A DNA stretch of 64,000 bases from Vicinamibacterales bacterium (GTDB taxonomy: Bacteria; Acidobacteriota; Vicinamibacteria; Vicinamibacterales; JAMQPK01), in NCBI GenBank assembly GCA_963761975.1, contig CAVXIR010000007.1, positions 558,965 through 622,964 on the forward strand. The letters run 5' to 3'. A program made the translations under genes and the position numbers. Shown in pieces: positions 8,192 through 56,425 of this stretch. How positions within the stretch are numbered: position 1 is the stretch's first letter; each line of letters starts with the position of its first letter. The notes under the pieces were generated by a model that saw only the letters and a program-made list of their open reading frames with translations, made no database searches and was not told the origin of the DNA.

Positions 8192-8338
8192 TCGCACTAT
8201 TCGCAGATTGTCAGATTCGTAGATTGTCAGATTCGCGAACTGTCAGATTGGAAGAATGACGATTGGAGGATTGCTCGATTGATTGGCCGTCGACATGTAT
8301 TTTCCAATCGCACAATCTGCGAATCTGCGAATCTTCCA
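8192..8338. repeat. imperfect palindrome built from CAGATTG / CAATCTG units
   Basis: Left half ATTCGCAGATTGTCAGATTCG..., right half ..CAATCTGCGAATCTGCGAATC. It fills the intergenic gap. Confidence 0.8.
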
Positions 8339-15397: not shown

Positions 15398-16228
15398 CTA
15401 GTTCAGAAGTCCGACAATCTCCTCAACACTCCACACGTGATCGCTAACACCGGCCTCCATCGCTGGCGTCACTCGCAGCGTTTGATGGACGCGGGCGAAG
15501 TTGTAATACATGAAGTAGAGGGCCACCATCGCCGCATGATTCTCGATTTTCTTGCTGAACGCGTTTGTTAGACGCGTGAAACGTCGCATAGACATCCGCA
15601 TCGTGAGGTTCTGGCGCTCAACGAAAGACGTCGAGATGTGTTTCGGATCAGGCGTCCCGTTAACCTCGGTCCGCTTGCAGCCGACGCACACGGGCGGGCT
15701 ATACCGACCACCGCCGCTACCAGCGTTCGCGTAAATCTTATGGAGTTGGGCGTAGTCGATCTCGGTGCCGAACGCGAGATCTATGGCGTTCAGATAGACA
15801 CTGTGACCGTCTGTCGTCAGTTGCACCCGGTTCGCAAGCCGTGACGCCACGTCGTGCATGAAGACGCTCCCGGTTTCAAATGAGCGGTCGCCAATCTGGA
15901 AACTGATGATGAGCTTCGCGTCCGCGTCTATCGCGGTCCACGTCCAGATATCGCCCCATCCCGCCGCCCTTGTCTCTGGCGTCGTGTTCTTTTCCTTGGC
16001 GCCAACGAACGACCAAATTTCATCGCATTGAACGCGCTTCGTAGACAGGTTCCGGATGGCGTCGTTCTGGAATTTCGAGCACGCATCGCCGAGATCTGCG
16101 AGCAGCTTGACGATAGTGTTCTTGGACGCGCCAGTCATCCGCACCGTGGACCGGATGCTGCTGCCCTCAACCAGCGCCCTCATGACCGCCGCTCGCCGTG
16201 CCGTGCTCATCTGATTCATACTGACCAT
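15398..16228 (-). CDS. IS1-family DDE transposase, single ORF (276 aa)
   Basis: N-terminal HTH (LVEGSSIRSTVRMTGASKNTIVKLL), then VQCDEIWSFV, TWTAIDADAKLI, LTTDGHSVY and SFVERQNLTMRMSMRRFTRLTNAFSKK. I recognise these as the IS1/ISMhu11-type transposase core. Confidence 0.88.
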   Translation of the reverse strand: MVSMNQMSTARRAAVMRALVEGSSIRSTVRMTGASKNTIVKLLADLGDACSKFQNDAIRNLSTKRVQCDEIWSFVGAKEKNTTPETRAAGWGDIWTWTAIDADAKLIISFQIGDRSFETGSVFMHDVASRLANRVQLTTDGHSVYLNAIDLAFGTEIDYAQLHKIYANAGSGGGRYSPPVCVGCKRTEVNGTPDPKHISTSFVERQNLTMRMSMRRFTRLTNAFSKKIENHAAMVALYFMYYNFARVHQTLRVTPAMEAGVSDHVWSVEEIVGLLN

Positions 16229-16307: not shown

Positions 16308-17342
16308 ATGGCAGACGAGAAGCCGAAAACGGCCGCCGAGTTCGGGTCGGAAGGCGGTAAGAAGCGCGCCCAGCGGTTGACGCCAGATCAGCGCCGAGAC
16401 ATCTCCAGGCGCGCGGCAGAAGCCCGATGGGGCGCTCAGGGTCGTCTGAAGGTGCTGCGCGCCACGCACGAAGGGGCACTGACGATTGCTGGCGTCGTCA
16501 TCCCCGCTGCTGTGTTGGAGGACGGGACGCGGGTGCTTTCGCGTGCAGGCTTTCTAAAGGCGATCGGACGTACGGGGAAGGCGAAAGGCGGCAGACGCTA
16601 CGACGTTGAATCCAAAGTGCCTGTTTTCTTGACCGCTGAGAACCTTAAACCCTTTATTCCTGACGACTTAGTTGCTAATTCCAACCCGGTTCCTTTTCGG
16701 CCTCTTTCTGGAGCTTCGCTCGGTCTAGCGATGGGCTACAGGTACCAGCTCCTCCCTCAGGTTTGCCATGTGTTCATGGACGCGAAGGAAGCTGACGCGC
16801 TTCGCGCCAATCAGTTGCACATCGCTGAACAGTGCCGGATTCTGAGCCGGGGGTTCTCGATTGTCGGTTTGGCGGCGCTCATCGATGAGGCTACCGGCTA
16901 TCAGAACGTCACGGATCGAGAAAAGCTCGAATCAATTCTAAATACATACCTGGGTAAGGAATTGGCCGCATGGGCAAAGCGTTTCCCTGATGAGTTCTAC
17001 CGCCAGATCTTCCGCCTTCGTGGATGGCCTTGGGTAGGACGGACCAAGAACCCGCCCCAGATTGTGGGCAAGTACACGGACATCATCGTCTACCAACGCC
17101 TGGCGCCGTCCTTGGTCGAAACGCTGCGCCGCCTGAACCCGAAAGACGAAAAGGGAAACAGGCCCCATAAACGCCACCAGTACCTAAGCGCCGACGTGGG
17201 GCATCCCGCACTGGCTCAGCACGTTCATGCGACGACTGCAATTATGCGGACCTGCAAGACGTGGCCGGAGTTCCTAGGACGGCTGAAGATGGCCTTCCCG
17301 AAGGAGACCTCGGCGGATTGGTTGCCCTTCGGCGAAGACTAG
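16308..17342 (+). CDS. P63C-domain protein with N-terminal GG-K-KRA..LTP..R..IS..AA.ARW module (344 aa)
   Basis: Central and C-terminal pattern IDEATGYQ.., FPDEFYRQIFRLRGWPW.., VYQRLAP.., NPKDEKGNR.HKRHQYL matches what I remember of the P63C (phage-derived) domain. Confidence 0.7.
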   Translation: MADEKPKTAAEFGSEGGKKRAQRLTPDQRRDISRRAAEARWGAQGRLKVLRATHEGALTIAGVVIPAAVLEDGTRVLSRAGFLKAIGRTGKAKGGRRYDVESKVPVFLTAENLKPFIPDDLVANSNPVPFRPLSGASLGLAMGYRYQLLPQVCHVFMDAKEADALRANQLHIAEQCRILSRGFSIVGLAALIDEATGYQNVTDREKLESILNTYLGKELAAWAKRFPDEFYRQIFRLRGWPWVGRTKNPPQIVGKYTDIIVYQRLAPSLVETLRRLNPKDEKGNRPHKRHQYLSADVGHPALAQHVHATTAIMRTCKTWPEFLGRLKMAFPKETSADWLPFGED

Positions 17343-22294: not shown

Positions 22295-22326
22295 CTGGTA
22301 GGGCGCAACTTCAGTTGCGCTACCAG
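22295..22326. repeat. GTAG-type hairpin CTGGTAGGGCGCAAC-TTCA-GTTGCGCTACCAG
   Basis: Read directly. Member of the covarying hairpin family (see findings). Confidence 0.7.
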
Positions 22327-30686: not shown

Positions 30687-33230
30687 GTGACACAGCTCAG
30701 CAGGCACGCATCGGTATTTGCGGTCGGTGTCGGCATCTGTGCAGCCGTCGCACTGTTCAGCGTGCGCACGTCTGCCGATCAGGCGCCTGCGCCGGTCACG
30801 GCATCATCCACATCCCAGACGGTCGTCAACAAGTACTGCGTCGGTTGCCACAATCAGAAAGCGCGAACCGGTGGACTCGCGCTCGACACGCTCGATGTCG
30901 TGAATCCTGGCCAGCACGCGGAAATCTGGGAGCGCGTTGTTGAGAAGCTGCGCGCTGGTTCGATGCCGCCGCCGGGACGGCCGCGTCCAGACAACGCGAC
31001 ATATCTTGCCGCGGCGACCGAGCTCGAGAACGCACTCGACACGGCATGGGCGGCCCGCCCCGATCCCGGACGCATCGGTGCGGTGCACCGTCTGAATCGC
31101 ACGGAATACGCCAACGCCATCCGCGATCTCTTCGGCTTCAATGCGCAGAGCATCGACGTGCAATCGCAGCTGCCTGGCGACGAAACGGCAGACGGCAGCT
31201 TCGACAACTTCGCCGATTCCCTTTCCATCTCCACAGCGCATCTCGAGCGTTACATGTCCGTTGCGAGGCAAGTCACGCGGCTTGCAACGGCGCTGCCGCC
31301 GACTCATCCGACCGTCGAGATGTTCGAAGTGCCGCTGCACGTGATCCAGGACGACAGGCAGAGCGAAGATCTGCCCTTGGGGTCGCGCGGCGGTATTGCC
31401 GTGCGCTATCACTTTCCGGTCGACGGCGAATATCGCATCGTCGTCCGACTCCAGCGAAACTATCAGGACTATCTCAAAGGGATGGGATGGGAGCAGCAGC
31501 TGGACGTGCGTCTCGACGGAAAGTTGCTGAAGCGATTTGTTGTGGGCGGCAAAGCAGAGGGCCGTCCCGCCGCGGCCAGCTATGCCGGCGATGGCGAGCC
31601 GGGATTTGCCGGTGCGCCCGAGTGGGAAAAGTACATGCAGATCGACGGCGATGCCGACCTCGAGGTGCGTGTGCCGGTCACCGCAGGATCGCGCGCGGTC
31701 GGCGTCTCTTTCGTCCGCCAGTTGTGGGAGCCCGAAGGGCTGCCGCAGCCGCTGCAGCGGGGCCGTGTGATCACGAACGACGAAGTGTACATGGACTACG
31801 CGAACGTCGCGGCTCTGCAGATCGGTGGTCCGTACCCGAGCGGGACGTCGCAAGAAAAACGTGAGACCACGAACCGGGTCTTCACCTGCCGTCCGGCGAG
31901 GGTTTCCGAAGAGCCGGCATGCGCGACGAGGATTTTGTCGCGCCTCGCGCGGCTCGCGTATCGCCGTCCGGTGACGAAAGCGGACGTGCAGACGTTGATG
32001 ACGTTCTTCGCCGATGGACGACGCCAGGGAGGCAGCTTTGCCAGCGGCGTGCAGTTCGCCCTCGAGCGGATGCTCGTCGATCCCGATTTCCTTCTGCGCG
32101 TGTATCGCGATCCGGTTGCTGGTCGTCGTCCGGTTTCACGCGATGGGAAAATCCAATTTCAGTCGGGCGATTCGTATCGCTTATCCGATCTCGAGCTCGC
32201 CTCTCGCCTGTCGTTTTTCCTCTGGTCGAGCATTCCCGATGACCAGTTGCTGACGCTCGCCGAGCAGCGCAAGCTTTCGGATTCGGCCGTGCTCGACCAG
32301 CAGGTGAAGCGCATGCTCGCGGACCCGCGTGCCGAAGAGGCGTTGGTCGACGATTTTGCTGCGCAGTGGCTGAACCTGCGGCGCGTCGAGGAGGTCGTCG
32401 TCGATCCCGAGCGATACCCAAATTACGACCTCACGTTGATGGAGTCGTTCAAGCGCGAGACCGAGCTCTTTGTTGGCAGCACGCTGCGCGACGACAAGAG
32501 CGTGCTCGAGCTGTTGAATGCTGACTACACGTTCCTGAACGAAAGGCTGGCGAGACATTACGGTGTTCCCGGCATCTACGGGAGCCGCTTCCGTCGAGTG
32601 ACGCTCGCCGACAAGAACCAGCGAGGCGGACTGCTTGCGCAAGGCGCGCTCCTCTCGACGACGTCGTATCCCGACAGGACGTCGCCAGTCCTCCGTGGAA
32701 AGTTCCTGCTGAACAATATTCTGGGGCTCCAGGTCACGCCGCCGCCCCCCGGCGTCGACACGAATCTGGCGCCGACCAAGCCGGGCGCGCCGCCGCCGAC
32801 CATCCGCGAACGCCTGGCCGCGCATCGGACGGACCCGACGTGTGCGAGTTGCCATGGCGTCATCAATCCGCTCGGCTTTGCGCTCGAGAACTTCGACGTC
32901 ATCGGCGGGTGGCGGACGACGGATGAAGCGGGCAAGCCGGTCGATGCGGCCGGCACGACGATGAGCGGAAAGAACGTTGAAGGGTTGATCGGGCTGCGAG
33001 CGCTGCTCCTCGAAGACCGCGAGCAGTTCCCGCGCACGGTGACGGAAAAGCTGCTCGCGTATGCGCTCGGCCGGCGAGTCGAGTACTACGATCGGCCTGC
33101 AATCCGTACCATCGTCCGTGATGCCGCAACCCACGACTATCGTTGGTCGTCGTTGATTTTGGGAATCGTCAAGAGCCCGGCGTTCCAGATGCGCCGCAGT
33201 GCTCCAGAGGTACGTAGCGCAGGGCTTTAG
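30687..33230 (+). CDS. DUF1592/DUF1588/DUF1585-type protein with N-terminal cytochrome c (CxxCH) domain (847 aa)
   Basis: NKYCVGCHNQKARTGGLALD heme-binding motif and a C-terminal ..CASCHGVINPLGFALENFD..G.WR motif. Architecture typical of the Planctomycete-type PSCyt/DUF1592 family. Confidence 0.88.
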   Translation: MTQLSRHASVFAVGVGICAAVALFSVRTSADQAPAPVTASSTSQTVVNKYCVGCHNQKARTGGLALDTLDVVNPGQHAEIWERVVEKLRAGSMPPPGRPRPDNATYLAAATELENALDTAWAARPDPGRIGAVHRLNRTEYANAIRDLFGFNAQSIDVQSQLPGDETADGSFDNFADSLSISTAHLERYMSVARQVTRLATALPPTHPTVEMFEVPLHVIQDDRQSEDLPLGSRGGIAVRYHFPVDGEYRIVVRLQRNYQDYLKGMGWEQQLDVRLDGKLLKRFVVGGKAEGRPAAASYAGDGEPGFAGAPEWEKYMQIDGDADLEVRVPVTAGSRAVGVSFVRQLWEPEGLPQPLQRGRVITNDEVYMDYANVAALQIGGPYPSGTSQEKRETTNRVFTCRPARVSEEPACATRILSRLARLAYRRPVTKADVQTLMTFFADGRRQGGSFASGVQFALERMLVDPDFLLRVYRDPVAGRRPVSRDGKIQFQSGDSYRLSDLELASRLSFFLWSSIPDDQLLTLAEQRKLSDSAVLDQQVKRMLADPRAEEALVDDFAAQWLNLRRVEEVVVDPERYPNYDLTLMESFKRETELFVGSTLRDDKSVLELLNADYTFLNERLARHYGVPGIYGSRFRRVTLADKNQRGGLLAQGALLSTTSYPDRTSPVLRGKFLLNNILGLQVTPPPPGVDTNLAPTKPGAPPPTIRERLAAHRTDPTCASCHGVINPLGFALENFDVIGGWRTTDEAGKPVDAAGTTMSGKNVEGLIGLRALLLEDREQFPRTVTEKLLAYALGRRVEYYDRPAIRTIVRDAATHDYRWSSLILGIVKSPAFQMRRSAPEVRSAGL

Positions 33231-33236
33231 CCCTGC
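33212..33236. repeat. ACGTAG-type hairpin ACGTAG-C-GCAGGGC-TTTA-GCCCTGC spanning the DUF1592 stop codon
   Basis: Read directly. Confidence 0.7.
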
Positions 33237-33248
33237 CAAGGAGACCGC

Positions 33249-40788: not shown

Positions 40789-40802
40789 GGTAAGTGTCGT
40801 GT

Positions 40803-40897
40803 GCATTGCCACATTGAGAATTGACGATTGCCGGACTAATTGGCGATTGAGAAATCGTCAATCAATGGACAATTGCCAATCGAAAATGTGGCAATGC
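40803..40897. repeat. GCATTGCC...GGCAATGC palindromic element, copy b (95 bp)
   Basis: Termini GCATTGCCACATT / AATGTGGCAATGC. Lies between convergent gene ends. Confidence 0.85.
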
Positions 40898-40910
40898 TGC
40901 CGACTCGGAA

Positions 40911-43222: not shown

Positions 43223-43247
43223 ACGTAGTGTCCGGCTTCAGCCGGAC
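43223..43247. repeat. ACGTAG-type hairpin ACGTAG-T-GTCCGGC-TTCA-GCCGGAC
   Basis: Read directly, 13 nt before the next start codon. Confidence 0.7.
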
Positions 43248-43259
43248 CGTGGAGGCGAC

Positions 43260-44210: not shown

Positions 44211-44250
44211 GCGAACGGTGCCTCGTTTACCTCTGTGGTTGCATTTCCTG

Positions 44251-44413
44251 GTGTCCCGGCCGCGTGATTCGTTGCATAAGTCCCGGAGCGCGGCGCCCGG
44301 ATGGCAAGGCGCGAGGCGCGCGGGAATTATCGGGAATATTTGAGCGCCGAGCAACGCAGCCAGCCGGGATGCCCCGCCCGGGAGTTATGTGACGAATCAC
44401 GCGGCCGGGACAC
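44251..44413. repeat. 163-bp element bounded by a perfect 22-bp inverted repeat (GTGTCCCGGCCGCGTGATTCGT / ACGAATCACGCGGCCGGGACAC)
   Basis: Read directly. Pairing continues imperfectly for about 11 more nt inward. Lies between convergent genes, abutting the sigma factor stop. Confidence 0.85.
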
Positions 44414-45090
44414 TAGCTCGCGCCGATTTTGGCGAACACGGCGGCGACGACCCGGTCGCAGCGCGACTGATGGAACGTGAACGCGTGCGGCGCGCTCAGG
44501 CCCGCCCGCTCCAGGAGGTCGCGCCTGAGTGTGGCTTTGGCGCGTGACAGCCGCGTTTTCACCACATCATCGCTGACACCGAGCGCTTCGGCTGTTTCCG
44601 ACGTGCTCATCCCCTGAACTTCGCGCAGCACGAAGACCTCGCGGGACCCATCGGGCAGTTCGTCCACCGCCGCTTCGAGGAGTGCCGCCAGCTCGCGTGC
44701 GAAGGCGAGACGCTCGGGATCTGGCGCCGCGCCGCCCGATGAGATCGTCTCAACGACGCCGTCTTCGCCGTCGAGCGATTCGTATCGCCCCTGTCTGCGC
44801 GCCCGGGCAATCGCCTCGTTCACGGCAATCCTCGTCAGCCATGTGGCGAACGCCGCGCGCCGGTCGAACTGGCGCAGGTGAGCATACGCGTTGACGTGGG
44901 CCTGCTGCATCACGTCCTCGGCTTCGCGGTCGTCGCGCAGGATGGCACGCACTGCCCGATAGATCCGTTCGTTGTGGCGTCTCATCAGAACTTCGAAAAG
45001 CGCCGTCTGCCCTTGGAGAACGCGCGTCACGACCTCCTCGTCCGAAAAGCCGATCCATCGCTCGAGGACAGCGCCGCTGACCATATGCAT
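44413..45090 (-). CDS. ECF-type RNA polymerase sigma factor (225 aa)
   Basis: Region 2 ..EDVMQQAHVNAYAHLRQFDRRAAFATWLTRIAVNEA.. and region 4 ..LPDGSREVFVLREVQGMSTSETAEALGVSDDVVKTRLSRAKATLR. Confidence 0.85.
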   Translation of the reverse strand: MHMVSGAVLERWIGFSDEEVVTRVLQGQTALFEVLMRRHNERIYRAVRAILRDDREAEDVMQQAHVNAYAHLRQFDRRAAFATWLTRIAVNEAIARARRQGRYESLDGEDGVVETISSGGAAPDPERLAFARELAALLEAAVDELPDGSREVFVLREVQGMSTSETAEALGVSDDVVKTRLSRAKATLRRDLLERAGLSAPHAFTFHQSRCDRVVAAVFAKIGAS

Positions 45091-45261
45091 CGTTGGCTCC
45101 TGAATGCGTTAGCCTGCCTTTGAATAGAGTACCAAACTCGACAAAGGTGACGCGGCACGCCAGCGTCGCATTTGACTACACGTTTACTCGATTTCCGATG
45201 CGGCTGAGCCAATCCGCCGGCGGATTTCGCATCCCTCACCAAGATACGAGGGAGGCGAAAC

Positions 45262-45846
45262 ATGCGCGCTCGAGCGATTGTCTTCCTGGGTTGCATCGTT
45301 GTCTGGGGCGGCGCCGCACATGCGCAGGCCGTGCCGCCGCGATTCGAGGTTGGCGGTGGGGGCGGTGTGCTGGCCGGGGGAGGCAGCAGTGACGGGTTCA
45401 TGATCTTCACGGTGGGCCCACGGTTGACCCTCAACGTCACTCCTCGCGACGGCCTGGAAATCGCCGCCGAGATCGTCGGACCGGTCGAAGGCAACGGGCT
45501 TTACGGCCTTTACGTCCTGCAGTACAAGCGCACCCTGACAGGCCGTGTGGCGAGTCAACGTTCCGTCTTCATGACGGCCGGAGCGGGTGGCACCTTCGAG
45601 TACGAGCGTAGCAGGGAATTTCGCGAGGAACGTCCTGACGGATCGGTGTTCGTCCAGCCACCATACACGCACGCATCAGTCGATGGGCCAATGTTCGTCG
45701 CGGTGGGCGTGGGCTTCGAGCGCGTGCTCGCGCGTTATGTTGCCACGCGAGGCGAGCTGCAGCTGGCCGCATTCCGATTCGGCAGTGTAGGGGTGAGAGG
45801 CACCTTTGGGGTCTCAATCCCGATCGGAGGCTATCGTGTCCGGTAG
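45262..45846 (+). CDS. putative outer-membrane beta-barrel protein (194 aa)
   Basis: Signal peptide ..GGAAHAQA, alternating strand pattern and a terminal aromatic-rich strand. Confidence 0.55.
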   Translation: MRARAIVFLGCIVVWGGAAHAQAVPPRFEVGGGGGVLAGGGSSDGFMIFTVGPRLTLNVTPRDGLEIAAEIVGPVEGNGLYGLYVLQYKRTLTGRVASQRSVFMTAGAGGTFEYERSREFREERPDGSVFVQPPYTHASVDGPMFVAVGVGFERVLARYVATRGELQLAAFRFGSVGVRGTFGVSIPIGGYRVR

Positions 45847-46456
45847 ACACTCACAGCTTCCGGTTATGGCGATCGCCGTGACCGCGCTCACGGCCATCGC
45901 GTGCCAAACAGGAGAGCCAGGCGCTCCGTACGTCATTCCGGGGCCGACGGGGCCAACGCCCGTATCGACGCGGATGCCTTACGTGTGGGATTCGCGCGAC
46001 GAGCTTTCCGTCTGGATCGACAGCAAAGTATCGCGGGGCCCCATCTCGATGACCGGTGACGGACCGGGCGCGGCCATCCGAATCGAGAGTGGGTCGCCGA
46101 CCTTTTCGCTCGAAAACGGCAGTTCCGTGCAATGGGTGCTCCGCGGACCCGATTTCGAACTGCCCGTCACAGGGGTGAGAGCAGTGAGCATCCGTTACAC
46201 GTGGGTGCCGGCCATCCGAAACTCGACCGTTCCCGTAGCCATGCCGGACATCAACGCGGGATTCGAGCTGCCGGAAGGTCGTGCCGGGCTTCTACAGGTG
46301 ACGCTCGGTTCCCCGATCGCACGGGAACCATCAGGGGAAATGATCCTGGAGGACAAGTTTACGAAACCGTTCGATGCACGTTATTTCTATCTGTACTCGG
46401 ATGGTGGAAATCGAGGAGTGCTGGAGATCGATTCGATCGCCCTCATTCGCGAGTAG
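45836..46456 (+). CDS. hypothetical lipoprotein (GTG start, lipobox LTAIAC)
   Basis: Overlaps the upstream gene by 11 nt. The start choice is uncertain (the ATG at 45866 is also possible). Confidence 0.5.
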   Translation: MSGRHSQLPVMAIAVTALTAIACQTGEPGAPYVIPGPTGPTPVSTRMPYVWDSRDELSVWIDSKVSRGPISMTGDGPGAAIRIESGSPTFSLENGSSVQWVLRGPDFELPVTGVRAVSIRYTWVPAIRNSTVPVAMPDINAGFELPEGRAGLLQVTLGSPIAREPSGEMILEDKFTKPFDARYFYLYSDGGNRGVLEIDSIALIRE

Positions 46457-46467
46457 TGGCAGGGCTA

Positions 46468-47047
46468 GAGCGTTTTCGGTATCTGTGTAGCCGCGGCCAG
46501 TCGTCGCAGCAGGGCACGCAGCCGGCGGTCGCGAACCAGCTCGACGAGGCGGGAAAATGCATCTTCGCGACCCATTCCGATTACGCGATGGGAGCGCCCT
46601 TCGCTCAGCTCCCAACGCTTCGTACGCGCTGCAGATGCATTTTCCGGTCACGGGAGTACGTCGCCTCGCTCGCGATGGTTCGCGACCGCCGCCTGCGTGC
46701 CCCGCCGCGGCGCAGTGGTGGTCGCCCGGCGCGACGTGTGAGAGCCGAGCGGCCACAGGCAAACGACGGGGTGGCCGTCCGTCGTGGGTGGGTGATGGCT
46801 GGCGGTCGATAGGTCACAGCCCGACGGCGTCAGTCCAAAAACAACGGCGGCGGCCACCTTCGCGGACGACCAACCCTGGTCGGCCGCGCCATGGCAGAGA
46901 GGGATATCGCCGCCGCGTTGTTTTTCCGGGCCCGGGGCCCCCAACGCGGCAGCCGCGTTGGGGTGGCCTGTGTCGACCGTGACCGCCAGCCATCACCCAC
47001 CCACGACGGACGACTCGCCGTTCGCCACACAGATACCGAAAACGCTC
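46468..47047. mobile_element. MITE-like non-autonomous element (580 bp) with perfect 21-bp TIRs and TA target duplication
   Basis: GAGCGTTTTCGGTATCTGTGT at 46468-46488 and its exact reverse complement at 47027-47047. TA at 46466-46467 and at 47048-49. No credible transposase ORF inside. Confidence 0.7.
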
Positions 47048-47145
47048 TAAAGCCCTGCGCTACCGGCGACTCGCCGTCCTGTCGTGTTGATTTGGATTTT
47101 CCTCTGCGGCTTGGCGTCTTTGCGTTGAGACACAGCGTGTCGAGA

Positions 47146-48480
47146 TCACACGGCGTCTGATAACGAAGTGAAGTTGAACTCGCGAATGCGCAGCGCCGGC
47201 ATGTGGCGACCGGCGGCAACGGCCTCCGAGCGCCCGATGTCTTCCAGCCGGTTCAGCATCAGCAGCGGGCTCTCGTTCCAGCGCAGATTCTTCAACGGGC
47301 GCGTCACCTTGCCTTTTTCGATGAGAAACGCGCCGTCGCGCGTCAGTCCCGTGAAGAGCACCGTCCGCGGCTCGAGCGAGCGGATGTAGAAGAAATGCGT
47401 CACGAGCACGCCGTGGTCGCATTCGGCAATCAGCTCGTCGGTGGTTTTCGTCCCACCCGTCAGCTTCAGACCGCCGCCGGAAAACACGGATGCACCGTTG
47501 TAGATATCGTCGCCTGTCGGCTGCGTACCCTGCTTCTGAGCCCAGAAGCGTGTGTACGACAGATTTCGCAACACACCCCTTTCAATCCACACCGTTCGGC
47601 GAATCGGCAGCCCCTCGACGTCGAAGGGCATACCCAGCAAGTCCGGGTCCGACGGATCCGTATAGAGCGTGACACGCTCGTCGCACACCTTCTCGCCGAT
47701 TCGAGTGCCGCCGCCGGATTTCGAAAATGCGCTGCGCCCTTCATCGGCGCTTCTTGCGTTCAGCGCATTCGACAGAAGGGGCACTAGGTCGTTCACCGCC
47801 TGAGGTTCGAGCACGGCCGTATAGGGCCGAGGGTCGATCGATTGCGGGTTCCGGCTCGCCTGGGCTTTTCGCGCGGCGACACGCCCGATCGCCACCGGAT
47901 CGACGGCACCCCAGTCGCGCGACCCGGTGCTGGCCCAGCCGCTGCCCGTCCCGTCCGGCGTTCTCGCCGTCATCGACAGCTGGGCATCGGTGGTCCGGTG
48001 ATAGGCGAACAACCCGGCGCTCGTCGCCACCGCCACCGAAATGGCGCGTGCTTCGAGGAATCCTGCGGAGAAGATTGGGCCGGCGCCCTGCACGGCGCGC
48101 TGGACAGCGCCGGCGCGGGCGACGGGGTTCAGGTTGGCGGTGTCCTCGAGGTAGGCGTTGACGGTGGCGTATTTCTGCGGCCCCAGCTCCGGCATCATCT
48201 CGGGATCGTCGGGCGACAGCTGCGCAAGTTGAGCGGCAAGCTCTACCGTACGCCTCAGGCTCGCCTGGTCGAGCACGTTGGTCGTCGCCGCTGCCCGCTT
48301 GCGCCCCACGGTCGCCGTGACGGTCACGGAGACGTCGGTGACGCCGCCCGATGTCGTGATGCTGGCGTCCGCGAAGCGCGTGTTGCCGGCCCACTCGCTC
48401 GTGATGTTCACGCGCGTCTGGTCGGCCTTGCTCAACGCCAGCACTCGATCGGCGAGCGCTCTAGCCTCTTCGCGCGTCAT
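47146..48480 (-). CDS. PmbA/TldE-family metalloprotease subunit (444 aa)
   Basis: Starts MTREEARALADRVLALSKADQTRVNITS... The ATG overlaps the reconstructed TldD stop (ATGA). Typical PmbA length. Confidence 0.85.
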   Translation of the reverse strand: MTREEARALADRVLALSKADQTRVNITSEWAGNTRFADASITTSGGVTDVSVTVTATVGRKRAAATTNVLDQASLRRTVELAAQLAQLSPDDPEMMPELGPQKYATVNAYLEDTANLNPVARAGAVQRAVQGAGPIFSAGFLEARAISVAVATSAGLFAYHRTTDAQLSMTARTPDGTGSGWASTGSRDWGAVDPVAIGRVAARKAQASRNPQSIDPRPYTAVLEPQAVNDLVPLLSNALNARSADEGRSAFSKSGGGTRIGEKVCDERVTLYTDPSDPDLLGMPFDVEGLPIRRTVWIERGVLRNLSYTRFWAQKQGTQPTGDDIYNGASVFSGGGLKLTGGTKTTDELIAECDHGVLVTHFFYIRSLEPRTVLFTGLTRDGAFLIEKGKVTRPLKNLRWNESPLLMLNRLEDIGRSEAVAAGRHMPALRIREFNFTSLSDAV

Positions 48481-50097
48481 GATTTCCGCGCCGTGTTCAG
48501 AATGGTGACGTTGCGAAACCGGCTCGGGGGGCATCCATGGCTCACAGAGCTTGACTGTGACGGCTCGCCTTTGCCGTCGTTGAACGACCCACCCAGCCAG
48601 TACCGATGACTTGCCGCCGATCATGTCGAGCGCGTTCCAGAACACCGGGGTGTTGCTCTGATAGGCGACGTCACGCAGCATGCCCGTGATTTTCCCGTTG
48701 CGCACTTCGTAGTACGCCTGGCCCGAGAACTGGAAGTTATAACGCTGGTTGTCGATCGACCATGATCCGCGGTTCTTGATTACGATGCCACGATCGGTGG
48801 CCGCGACGATGTCGTCGAGCGAGATGTCGCGCTCGCCAGGCAACAGCGAGATGTTCGGCATGCGCTGAAACTGCACGGCGTTCCACGATTCGGCAAACGA
48901 GCAGCCATGCGACCGCCGTACGCCGGTGAGATGCTCGATCCACTTCGCCTGCTCGCGGGTCGTCTGGTAATCCTTGAAGATACCCTTTTCGATAATCAGC
49001 CACTGGTCCGCCGGAACGCCTTCGTCGTCCCAGGCAACGCGCGAGAGCGATCCTTCCTGCGTGCGGTCGGCTTGCACGTTCATGAACTCGGGGCCATAGC
49101 GCAGCTTGCCGATCGTCTTGTCTGGCGGCGCGACAAAGCTGGTGCCTGCATAGTTGGCTTCCTGGCCCACCGCGCGATCGAGCTCGGTTGGATGGCCAAT
49201 GGACTCGTGAATGGTCAGCCACAGGTTCGTCGGGTCGAGAATCAGATCGTATTGACCGGCTTCGACGCTCTTGGCGGTCAGCTTTTCGGCCGCAATCGAC
49301 GCCCACCGCTCGGCGTTACCGGGAATGTCGAGCGATTCGACGTATTCCCACCCTTCTCCCCGCGGCGCGGTTTCGTGTTCGTAGGTTTGAAAATCTCCCG
49401 GCGCCGTCGCGGTTGCACTGAAGTTGGGGCCGACGCGGATAAACGTCTGCGTCACGTTCGTGCCCTGCGACGTCACAAGCGTCTTCACCTCGCGCAGAAG
49501 TTGAAGACCGGACGACACGAAGCGGACGTTCCGCACTTTGAGAGCCGCCTCGTTCGCCTTCAGCAGCAGAGCGATCTTGTCCTCGAGAGGAACCTCGATG
49601 GGATCGCGACGCACAGGGGTTATCCACGTGCCCGTCACCGGTGTTGCAGGCGCGAGCTCGACGGGATGCCGCTGCACGGCGCGCGCGGCTCGCGAGAGCG
49701 CGACCGCCTCCTGTGCCGCTTTCTGCACACCGGCGCGCGTCATCACGCTTGTCGCCGCAAATCCCCAGCACCCGTTCACCAGCGCGCGGATGCCGAGACC
49801 GTAGGATTCCTCGTCGGCAACCGAGCTCACCTGGCGCTCGCGCGTCTGTATCAGCTGCCGTCGATAGCGGCCCACCCGTGCATCGGCGTATGACGCCCCA
49901 GCGCTGCGCGCCGCGTTCAGCGCTTCGTTGGCGAGCTCGATCACGAACGGATCGCCACTCGGTGCTACCAGCGTTTGCCTGCCCGCCGCAGCCTCGGCGA
50001 AGGCGGGTGCAGAGCCAGCATGGAGCCTGTTGGTCAGAAGAGCTGCCGCTGTCGCAGCTGTTTGGCCAATAAAATCACGTCTGGTCGGGTTCGACAT
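48477..50097 (-). CDS. TldD-family metalloprotease subunit with Tat signal, carrying a 1-nt insertion between about 48575 and 48607
   Basis: MSNPTRRDFIGQTAATAAALL Tat signal and HESIGHPTELDR zinc-site-like motif. The conserved C-terminus GSFNDGKGEPSQSSSVSHGCPPSRFRNVTILNTARKS-stop is readable only in the adjacent frame. Confidence 0.85.
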
Positions 50098-56323: not shown

Positions 56324-56425
56324 GCATTGCCGCATTTTCAATTGACAACTGCCATATTGATTGACGATTCACACTTGGTCAGTCGCCAATCAATTAGAAA
56401 TTGTCAATTGAAAATGTGGCAATGC
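56324..56425. repeat. GCATTGCC...GGCAATGC palindromic element, copy c (102 bp)
   Basis: Termini GCATTGCCGCATTTTCAATTGACAA / TTGTCAATTGAAAATGTGGCAATGC. Lies between convergent gene ends. Confidence 0.85.

Follow-up and report, generated by a model that had tools for sequence, protein, structure and literature searches.

Repetitive extragenic palindromes (REPs) are hot spots for insertion sequences (ISs), with members of the IS3, IS110, IS4, IS256, and IS5 families found in them (PMC1525189). GTAG-tagged REPs are repeated, extragenic units made of an unpaired GTAG head and a short G+C-rich palindrome (PMC3733652). ISY100, of the IS630 family, inserts almost only at TA, which it duplicates (PMC2170065). 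Here, we describe a 580-bp noncoding element at positions 46468-47047 of a 64-kb stretch of contig CAVXIR010000007.1 from a Vicinamibacterales bacterium; we call the whole 64,000 nt analyzed the window, and positions given without a further label are positions in it. The element has perfect inverted ends, is flanked by TA, and splits a GTAG-tagged REP. It is probably a MITE (miniature inverted-repeat transposable element), and its length is within the range of tens to several hundred base pairs covered by MITEs.

The closest described systems each share some of these features. Like this element, the Correia elements (CREE/NEMIS) of Neisseria are noncoding and intergenic, have inverted ends of ~26 bp, are flanked by TA, and fold into stable stem-loops; like it, they are orphans that lack an identified parent transposase (PMC10969869). 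Correia elements, however, are ~100-200 bp long, AT rich, and present in >100 copies per genome, whereas the element here has 580 bp, a G+C content of 68% (61% for the window), and an apparently low copy number. Unlike them, it also contains two long hairpin modules, and two of its copies were seen within REP loops. IS630/Tc1-mariner elements and their MITEs (ISY100, Stowaway-type) are similar in having TA at the insertion site and terminal inverted repeats (TIRs) of ~20 to 30 bp; they duplicate the TA (2 bp), and their transposase binds the TIRs (PMC2170065). However, neither an IS630 transposase nor an IS with the ends of our element was found in the window or the databases that we searched, and IS630 is not listed as REP targeting (PMC1525189). 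Specific insertion in REPs is, likewise, a property of IS1397 and ISKpn1 (IS3 family), ISPpu9, ISPpu10, and ISPa11 (IS110), and ISRm22 (IS4) (PMC1525189). Those ISs are autonomous, belong to other families, and make other duplications or none, whereas the element in the window is noncoding and TA flanked and has inverted ends. Finally, BOX, RUP, and SPRITE of Streptococcus pneumoniae, as well as BIMEs and REPINs, are also mosaics of palindromic modules with nested insertions (PMC10969869, PMC3116915). At 240 to 295 nt, the modules seen here are much longer than REP or BOX units; unlike the clustered small repeats, the whole mosaic lies within one pair of inverted ends, has moved as a unit, and keeps the same order in three copies. 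We consider this a genuine and fairly ordinary MITE-like element. What is unusual is its apparent preference for REP loops and its construction from two conserved, covarying hairpin modules.

The left TIR, GAGCGTTTTCGGTATCTGTGT (46468-46488, plus strand), is the perfect reverse complement of the right TIR (47027-47047, minus strand), and the match covers 23 nt if the flanking TA is included. A repeat finder reports inverted arms of 26 nt at 46466-46491 and 47024-47049 (96% complementary; 24/26 when extended inward). A scan of the window for the 21-mer, with up to 3 mismatches allowed, found these two sites and no other; the chance expectation is 0, and none of 100 shuffled sequences contained a match. 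Repeat finder and scan agree on the perfect, TA-flanked 21-bp TIRs of the original prediction, and that observation holds, at a level well above anything expected by chance. The element starts with GAG and finishes with CTC. The left TA (46466-46467), presumably one copy of a duplicated target dinucleotide, and the right TA (47048-47049) were both placed from the sequence and from the rebuilt site described next. A fold-back chimera arising in assembly was rejected, given sibling copies in independent assemblies.

Outside the two TAs lie the halves of a GTAG-tagged REP. The left half, GTAGTGGCAGGGC (46453-46465, plus strand), holds the stop codon (TAG, 46454-46456) that ends the upstream gene; the right half, AAGCCCTGCGCTAC (47050-47063), has its GTAG head on the minus strand. 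Removal of the 580 bp and one TA gives the uninterrupted site GTAGCGCAGGGCTTTAGCCCTGCCAC, which on the minus strand reads GTAGCGCAGGGCTTTAGCCCTGCCA and is identical, at 25 of 25 nt, to an intact paralogue at 33214-33238 (plus strand). The paralogue, GTAGCGCAGGGC-TTTA-GCCCTGCCA, emerged from a hairpin search as well as from the rebuilding of the site, and its hairpin, GCAGGGC-TTTA-GCCCTGC, spans 33219-33236. The full match needs a net removal of 582 nt: the longest stretch shared with 33214-33238 drops to 16 nt if both TAs are kept and to 14 nt if both are removed. Because the 25-nt match appears only with one TA retained, the boundaries of the element are exact to the base. Beyond this, the region resembles the remainder of the window only in the 17/17-nt match of 47047-47063 with 33214-33230. 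It had been predicted that the element landed in the TA of the hairpin loop and that the rebuilt hairpin is nearly identical to a copy given as 33212-33236; the rebuilt REP bears out the first claim, and the second proves stronger than stated, the identity being exact.

The repeated unit opens with (AC)GTAG[CT]G and continues as a hairpin with a G+C-rich stem of 7 bp, in several variants, and a TT[TC]A loop. It occurs in the window (33214-33238, 43225-43250, and 22298-22323) and in related genomes (at 4112 and 11635 in L032, 4329 and 4387 in L033, 434 in L035, and 4648 and 4702 in L036); some are conserved at orthologous positions in the relatives. On these features, the family fits the published definition of GTAG-tagged REPs (PMC3733652).

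The same two convergent genes that border the element are found at five loci of relatives (L032 to L036), and all five wholly lack it, with no part present. The genes are separated by 689 nt in the window, compared to 154 nt in L032, 217 in L033, 126 in L034, 101 in L035, and 510 in L036. In L032, the closest relative, the sequence runs straight across the junction as GTAGTGGCAGG-CTAAAC (in a longer form, GAGTAGTGGCAGG-CTAAAC), corresponding to GAGTAGTGGCAGGGC-TA-AAG in the rebuilt site of the window. The comparison supports the view that the 580 bp are an insertion and not ancestral sequence.

Copies elsewhere were found with HMMER, searched exhaustively with a single frame of the element (163 codons, 46491-46979), and then with a profile. 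The first search returned 11 “proteins” and the second three more, all of them rich in arginine and translated, in one frame or another, from sibling DNA; these are spurious open reading frames (ORFs). Counting that in the window, there are three full-length copies, in three assemblies and at three unrelated loci, besides partial copies and solo modules. One (L037, from ERZ25039586 contig_19360; 5189-5715) is 87% identical to 46490-47049 over 568 columns and lies between convergent genes for an ABC ATPase and a HATPase_c protein; the other (L043, from ERZ25039591 contig_139676; 2917-3473) is 84% identical to 46492-47046 over 571 columns and lies between two same-strand genes. Copies this similar at unrelated loci support a repeated, mobile family. 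In both siblings, the similarity stops at the right terminus of the window copy, and L043 retains a degenerate left end, TTTCCTCATCGGTGTAGCGAA, which scores so well against the right end of L043 itself that only 2 of 2,000 shuffles equal it. Given the shared terminus and this degenerate left end, the 580-bp unit has been moved or copied whole.

The flanks of the siblings are less well kept. The right end is conserved in L037 (GCAGATACCGAAAACGCTC, then TA) and degenerate in L043. The right junction of L037 reads ...ACCGAAAACGCTC-TA-GCCGGACCC, that is, the end of the element, TA, and the 3′ half of a REP variant with TCCGGC, and agrees with the expected junction at 33 of 35 positions. On its left side, ACGGAGTGTCCGG, a 12/13 match to the 5′ half of the REP, precedes the aligned core by ~190 nt; directly after it come a decayed left end, AGCGTTTCCTTGTAGC, and then 168 nt of extra sequence (5024-5188) that precede module A and have no counterpart in the window and L043 copies. 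With respect to TA flanks, therefore, the siblings answer in part: end, TA, and REP half are readable at the right junction of L037, but the flanks of L043 and the left ends of both copies are decayed. The window copy looks like the youngest or best preserved of the three, because its ends and the 32-bp arms of module B are perfect, while L037 and L043 are decayed.

Judged by these junctions, the L037 copy is a second REP-loop insertion: it splits a GTAG-tagged REP whose loop is TTTA, again at the TA. Compared to the window copy, it has the opposite orientation with respect to the REP head, as expected from the symmetry of a TA target. There are 365 intergenic TAs in the window, 2 of them in REP loops, which gives a rough chance of ~9e-5 that two of three copies fall in REP-loop TAs. 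This suggests a target preference for GGC-TT^TA-GCC loops, possibly a new one.

The element has no coding capacity. None of its ORFs has a Pfam match, and its six frames, concatenated and searched against an index of 5.8 billion proteins, gave no match among 8,000 candidates, which were filled by low-complexity words; the only protein-level “homologues” are the spurious ORFs over sibling DNA. The prediction that it has no transposase-sized coding ORF and should be non-autonomous stands. A single transposase-like gene is found among the window's 44 likely genes, namely, an IS1-type ORF at 15398-16228 (minus strand; 276 amino acids [aa]), with a partial DDE domain (Pfam DDE_Tnp_IS1, E = 1.7e-9) and no inverted ends around it; it adjoins an ORF with the phage-associated P63C domain (16308-17342, plus strand). 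IS1 makes 8- to 9-bp duplications. We rejected this ORF as a helper, given the different duplication length and the lack of matching ends.

We consider it likely that 46468-47047 is a non-autonomous DNA transposon of the MITE kind, inserted at the TA of a REP loop by a transposase acting in trans, with an IS630/Tc1-mariner-like mechanism the most likely one. We propose that a transposase supplied from elsewhere would recognize the 21-bp TIRs and insert the element at the TA within the loop (TTTA/TAAA, 4 nt) of a GTAG-tagged REP that separated a convergent pair of genes. The enzyme would most likely be a cut-and-paste DDE transposase whose 2-nt staggered cut duplicates the TA, as in IS630/Tc1-mariner. 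The cargo is two long hairpin modules and no gene. The TA on both sides is as originally predicted, and it is all that points to IS630/Tc1-mariner mobilization, since no parent IS or matching end was found. We infer this assignment, rather than read it from the sequence, because of the missing parent and because a TA duplication looks the same as an insertion with no duplication. The element may be mobile at present and might influence the neighboring genes.

Several findings weigh against this reading. In searches that needed 16 to 21 exact bases, and would have missed diverged ends, no autonomous IS with matching ends was found in GTDB species representatives, JGI metagenomes, IMG/VR, plasmids, or phages. 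The 21-mer end had 0 matches in the GTDB representatives; an 18-mer had 31 single matches in JGI metagenomes, about the estimated chance number, none of which extended when checked by blastn; a 16-mer had 15 single matches in IMG/VR, with no inverted partner; and plasmids and phages yielded no blastn match to either the element or its end. (L007, the longest 18-mer match, was set aside as low-G+C coding sequence.) Neither the 44 window ORFs nor the listed genes of L037 and L043 include an IS630-type transposase. There is one copy in the 64-kb window and none in ~70 kb of DNA from relatives, and on this basis the family appears to be low copy. Intact ends with a readable TA on each side are found in the window copy only, the left ends of both siblings having decayed. 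Moreover, TA is its own reverse complement, so a duplicated TA and a TA that belongs to an element inserted with no duplication leave identical sequences, and the duplication of the TA is presumptive. Finally, the interiors of the modules are better conserved than the linker, and their stems covary (see below), which is unexpected for inert transposon filler.

The same TA flanks could be left by a DDE transposase of another family, such as the IS427 group of the IS5 family. IS427-group members in ISfinder have GAG/GGA termini and 2- to 4-bp duplications. The GAG...CTC termini and the 2-bp flanking repeat of the element would be compatible with this, although we found no confirmation of these group features in the literature. 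It is also the case that the IS5 member ISNm1106, and no IS630 member, is among the REP-associated ISs (PMC1525189). No IS5-type transposase or matching end was found among the window ORFs or in the databases searched, however, and we consider this origin unlikely.

A different view is that the enzyme recognizes structure or a specific site and does not duplicate TA; it might be a REP-associated tyrosine transposase of the HUH type (RAYT, IS200/IS605-like) or a recombinase of the IS110 type. The element would then have entered the single-stranded loop of an extruded REP with no duplication, and its 23-bp ends would be the closing stem of the folded element. The rebuilt site fits a 582-nt element that includes one TA equally well. 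Two of the three copies lie in the loops of GTAG-tagged REPs, which are RAYT substrates (PMC3733652), and the known REP-specific ISs are mostly of the IS110 and IS3 families (PMC1525189). The element is also extremely rich in hairpins: the fold of the 611-nt region in single-stranded DNA has an energy of -247.8 kcal/mol (z = -18.6). Yet the opposite orientations of the two insertions relative to the REP head fit a symmetric TA target better than a strand-specific mechanism, and no RAYT, IS200/IS605, or IS110 gene was seen among the window ORFs scanned. Furthermore, to our knowledge, HUH and IS110 elements typically do not have long perfect TIRs. It seems improbable, in our judgment, that such an enzyme mobilizes the element.

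The interior, which the original prediction did not resolve, holds two hairpin modules; the account of ends and insertion holds, but the separate circulation of these modules was overlooked, and the second REP-loop insertion lay outside the sequence on which the prediction drew. Module A (46490-46730) has outer arms at 46502-46544 and 46670-46712 (43 nt, 86%) and inner arms at 46545-46564 and 46633-46652. Module B (46731-47025) has perfect 32-nt arms at 46776-46807 and 46981-47012 (100%) and an inner stem at 46838-46854 and 46909-46925. Within module B is a mini-hairpin, CCCCAACGCGGC-A-GCCGCGTTGGGG (46939-46963), a separate small repeat that is present in the L043 copy and absent from that of L037; as a palindrome of 25 to 34 nt, (GGGCCCCC)AACGCGGC-A-GCCGCGTT(GGGGTGGCC), it also occurs in unrelated intergenic DNA of relatives (L035 162-195 and L032 10270-10291). 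Each module is found by itself in other contigs, under spurious ORFs: module A in P0022, P0023, P0024, P0027, P0029, and P0020, the last of which has two of them in inverted orientation; module B in P0021, P0025, P0026, P0028, and P0030. Because both conserved modules also exist separately, the element is a mosaic of palindromic modules within one pair of inverted ends. This hints that, in this lineage, intergenic elements shuffle long palindromic modules drawn from a pool. In wider searches, the module A core had 5 chance matches in the GTDB representatives and 0 in IMG/VR, and the module B core had 0 in IMG/VR.

Among the three copies, identity is 92 to 96% in the interior of module B, 86 to 97% in module A, and 54 to 79% in the linker between them. 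In the alignment of the three copies, 95.5% of the cells are paired, and six pairs (three in each module) have changed on both sides, compared to 2.3 ± 1.2 in shuffles (2 of 500 reached this) and 0 or 1 when the partners were slid. Drawn from three sequences, this is modest evidence that the stems are maintained, whether through selection on structure or through correction of one arm by the other.

Maintained stems might also be expected if the conserved part were one or two structured noncoding RNA genes present as paralogues, with the ends and the TA incidental and no transposon involved. The compensatory changes would fit such genes, as would the occurrence of each module alone and the 92 to 97% conservation of module interiors in genomes whose orthologous intergenic DNA cannot be aligned. 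We nonetheless think an RNA gene without a transposon very unlikely, as it would leave unexplained why REPs are split exactly, twice, in two genomes, why five orthologous loci lack the element, why its gene context varies (convergent genes in the window and L037, same-strand genes in L043), and why it has perfect 32-bp stems, which are unusual for RNA genes. Nor did Rfam 15, whose models cover group I and II introns and large noncoding RNAs, yield a match at gathering score anywhere in the window; in the element region at E ≤ 10, there was only a 17-bit chance hit to Scr6925 (E = 7.6), and on this basis we rejected an ORF-less group II intron or other known RNA. No promoter-like site was found in the element, and its two weak terminator-like sites are no more than shuffles contain. 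That said, transposon and RNA readings are compatible, in that a mobile element can carry RNA modules.

The gene upstream of the element (45836-46456, plus strand; stop codon in the left REP half) encodes a conserved hypothetical protein of 206 aa, which served as the query for the orthologous loci and has orthologues of 59 to 79% identity. The convergent downstream gene (47146-48480, minus strand), delimited by its end at 47146 and an internal start, is the PmbA/TldD-family part of a 983-aa ORF (47146-50097); the name PmbA_TldD comes from precomputed Pfam annotations of the orthologous genes in L032 to L035, not from the window ORF. TldD and PmbA are fused in this ORF (minus strand) and in one of 982 aa in L034 (6748-9696), and they are two overlapping genes of 539 to 540 and 444 to 446 aa in L032, L033, and L035. 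At the orthologous intergenic site of L036 (4589-5098), there is a different insertion of ~450 bp, which holds two GTAG-tagged REPs and is bounded by inverted octamer arrays (CACGATGA and TCTTCGTG); with this second insertion, the convergent spot would be a recurrent landing place.

A 2,100-nt Logan contig from ERR11571147 is equivalent to 44386-46485 and encodes three flanking proteins, two of which, an extracytoplasmic function (ECF) sigma factor and the 206-aa protein, match those of the window exactly. On one side it stops within the left end of the element, after ~18 nt, and on the other inside a fold-back at 44248-44416; these ends may reflect assembly breaks at hairpins or repeats. We dropped the contig end as a sign of a break at a repeat, since the other end is in a hairpin too. 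The fold-back itself has 169 bp, with arms of 58 nt that are 79% complementary, and separates convergent genes for a cupin and an ECF sigma factor, which in L033 are only ~48 nt apart. With ends (CTAGTGTCCCGGCC) similar to the head and stem of the REP, it looks REPIN-like. Elsewhere in the window are long inverted repeats with arms of tandem hepta- or octamers of the GGTTCTG, GTTCGTGG, and GATTG types (10158-10284/11621-11792, 36255-36320/36936-37038, 8199-8324, 40796-40904, and 56324-56425), some of which enclose 0.6 to 1.4 kb; repeats of the same style fill 3′ intergenic regions in L032, L034, and L036.

This locus offers a clean, dated transposition event in an uncultured high-G+C soil bacterium, with exact boundaries, an intact copy of the target in the same window, and empty sites in relatives. 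It also explains the arginine-rich “hypothetical proteins” that gene callers place over such elements. Two independent insertions at the same position of GTAG-tagged REP loops suggest that a TA-flanked element with inverted ends prefers to land in these loops, a combination not among the catalogued REP-targeting ISs of the IS3, IS110, IS4, IS256, and IS5 families. One can envision, as a speculative and rather unlikely extension, an element family that specifically recognizes these loops and carries its two independently circulating, structure-constrained modules as functional RNAs or DNA structures. If this were true, the modules might act, for instance, as terminators or RNA stabilizers between convergent genes or as recognition structures for a structure-specific transposase, and hairpin-targeting, hairpin-carrying elements would form a class not yet described, possibly one not mobilized by an IS630-type enzyme.

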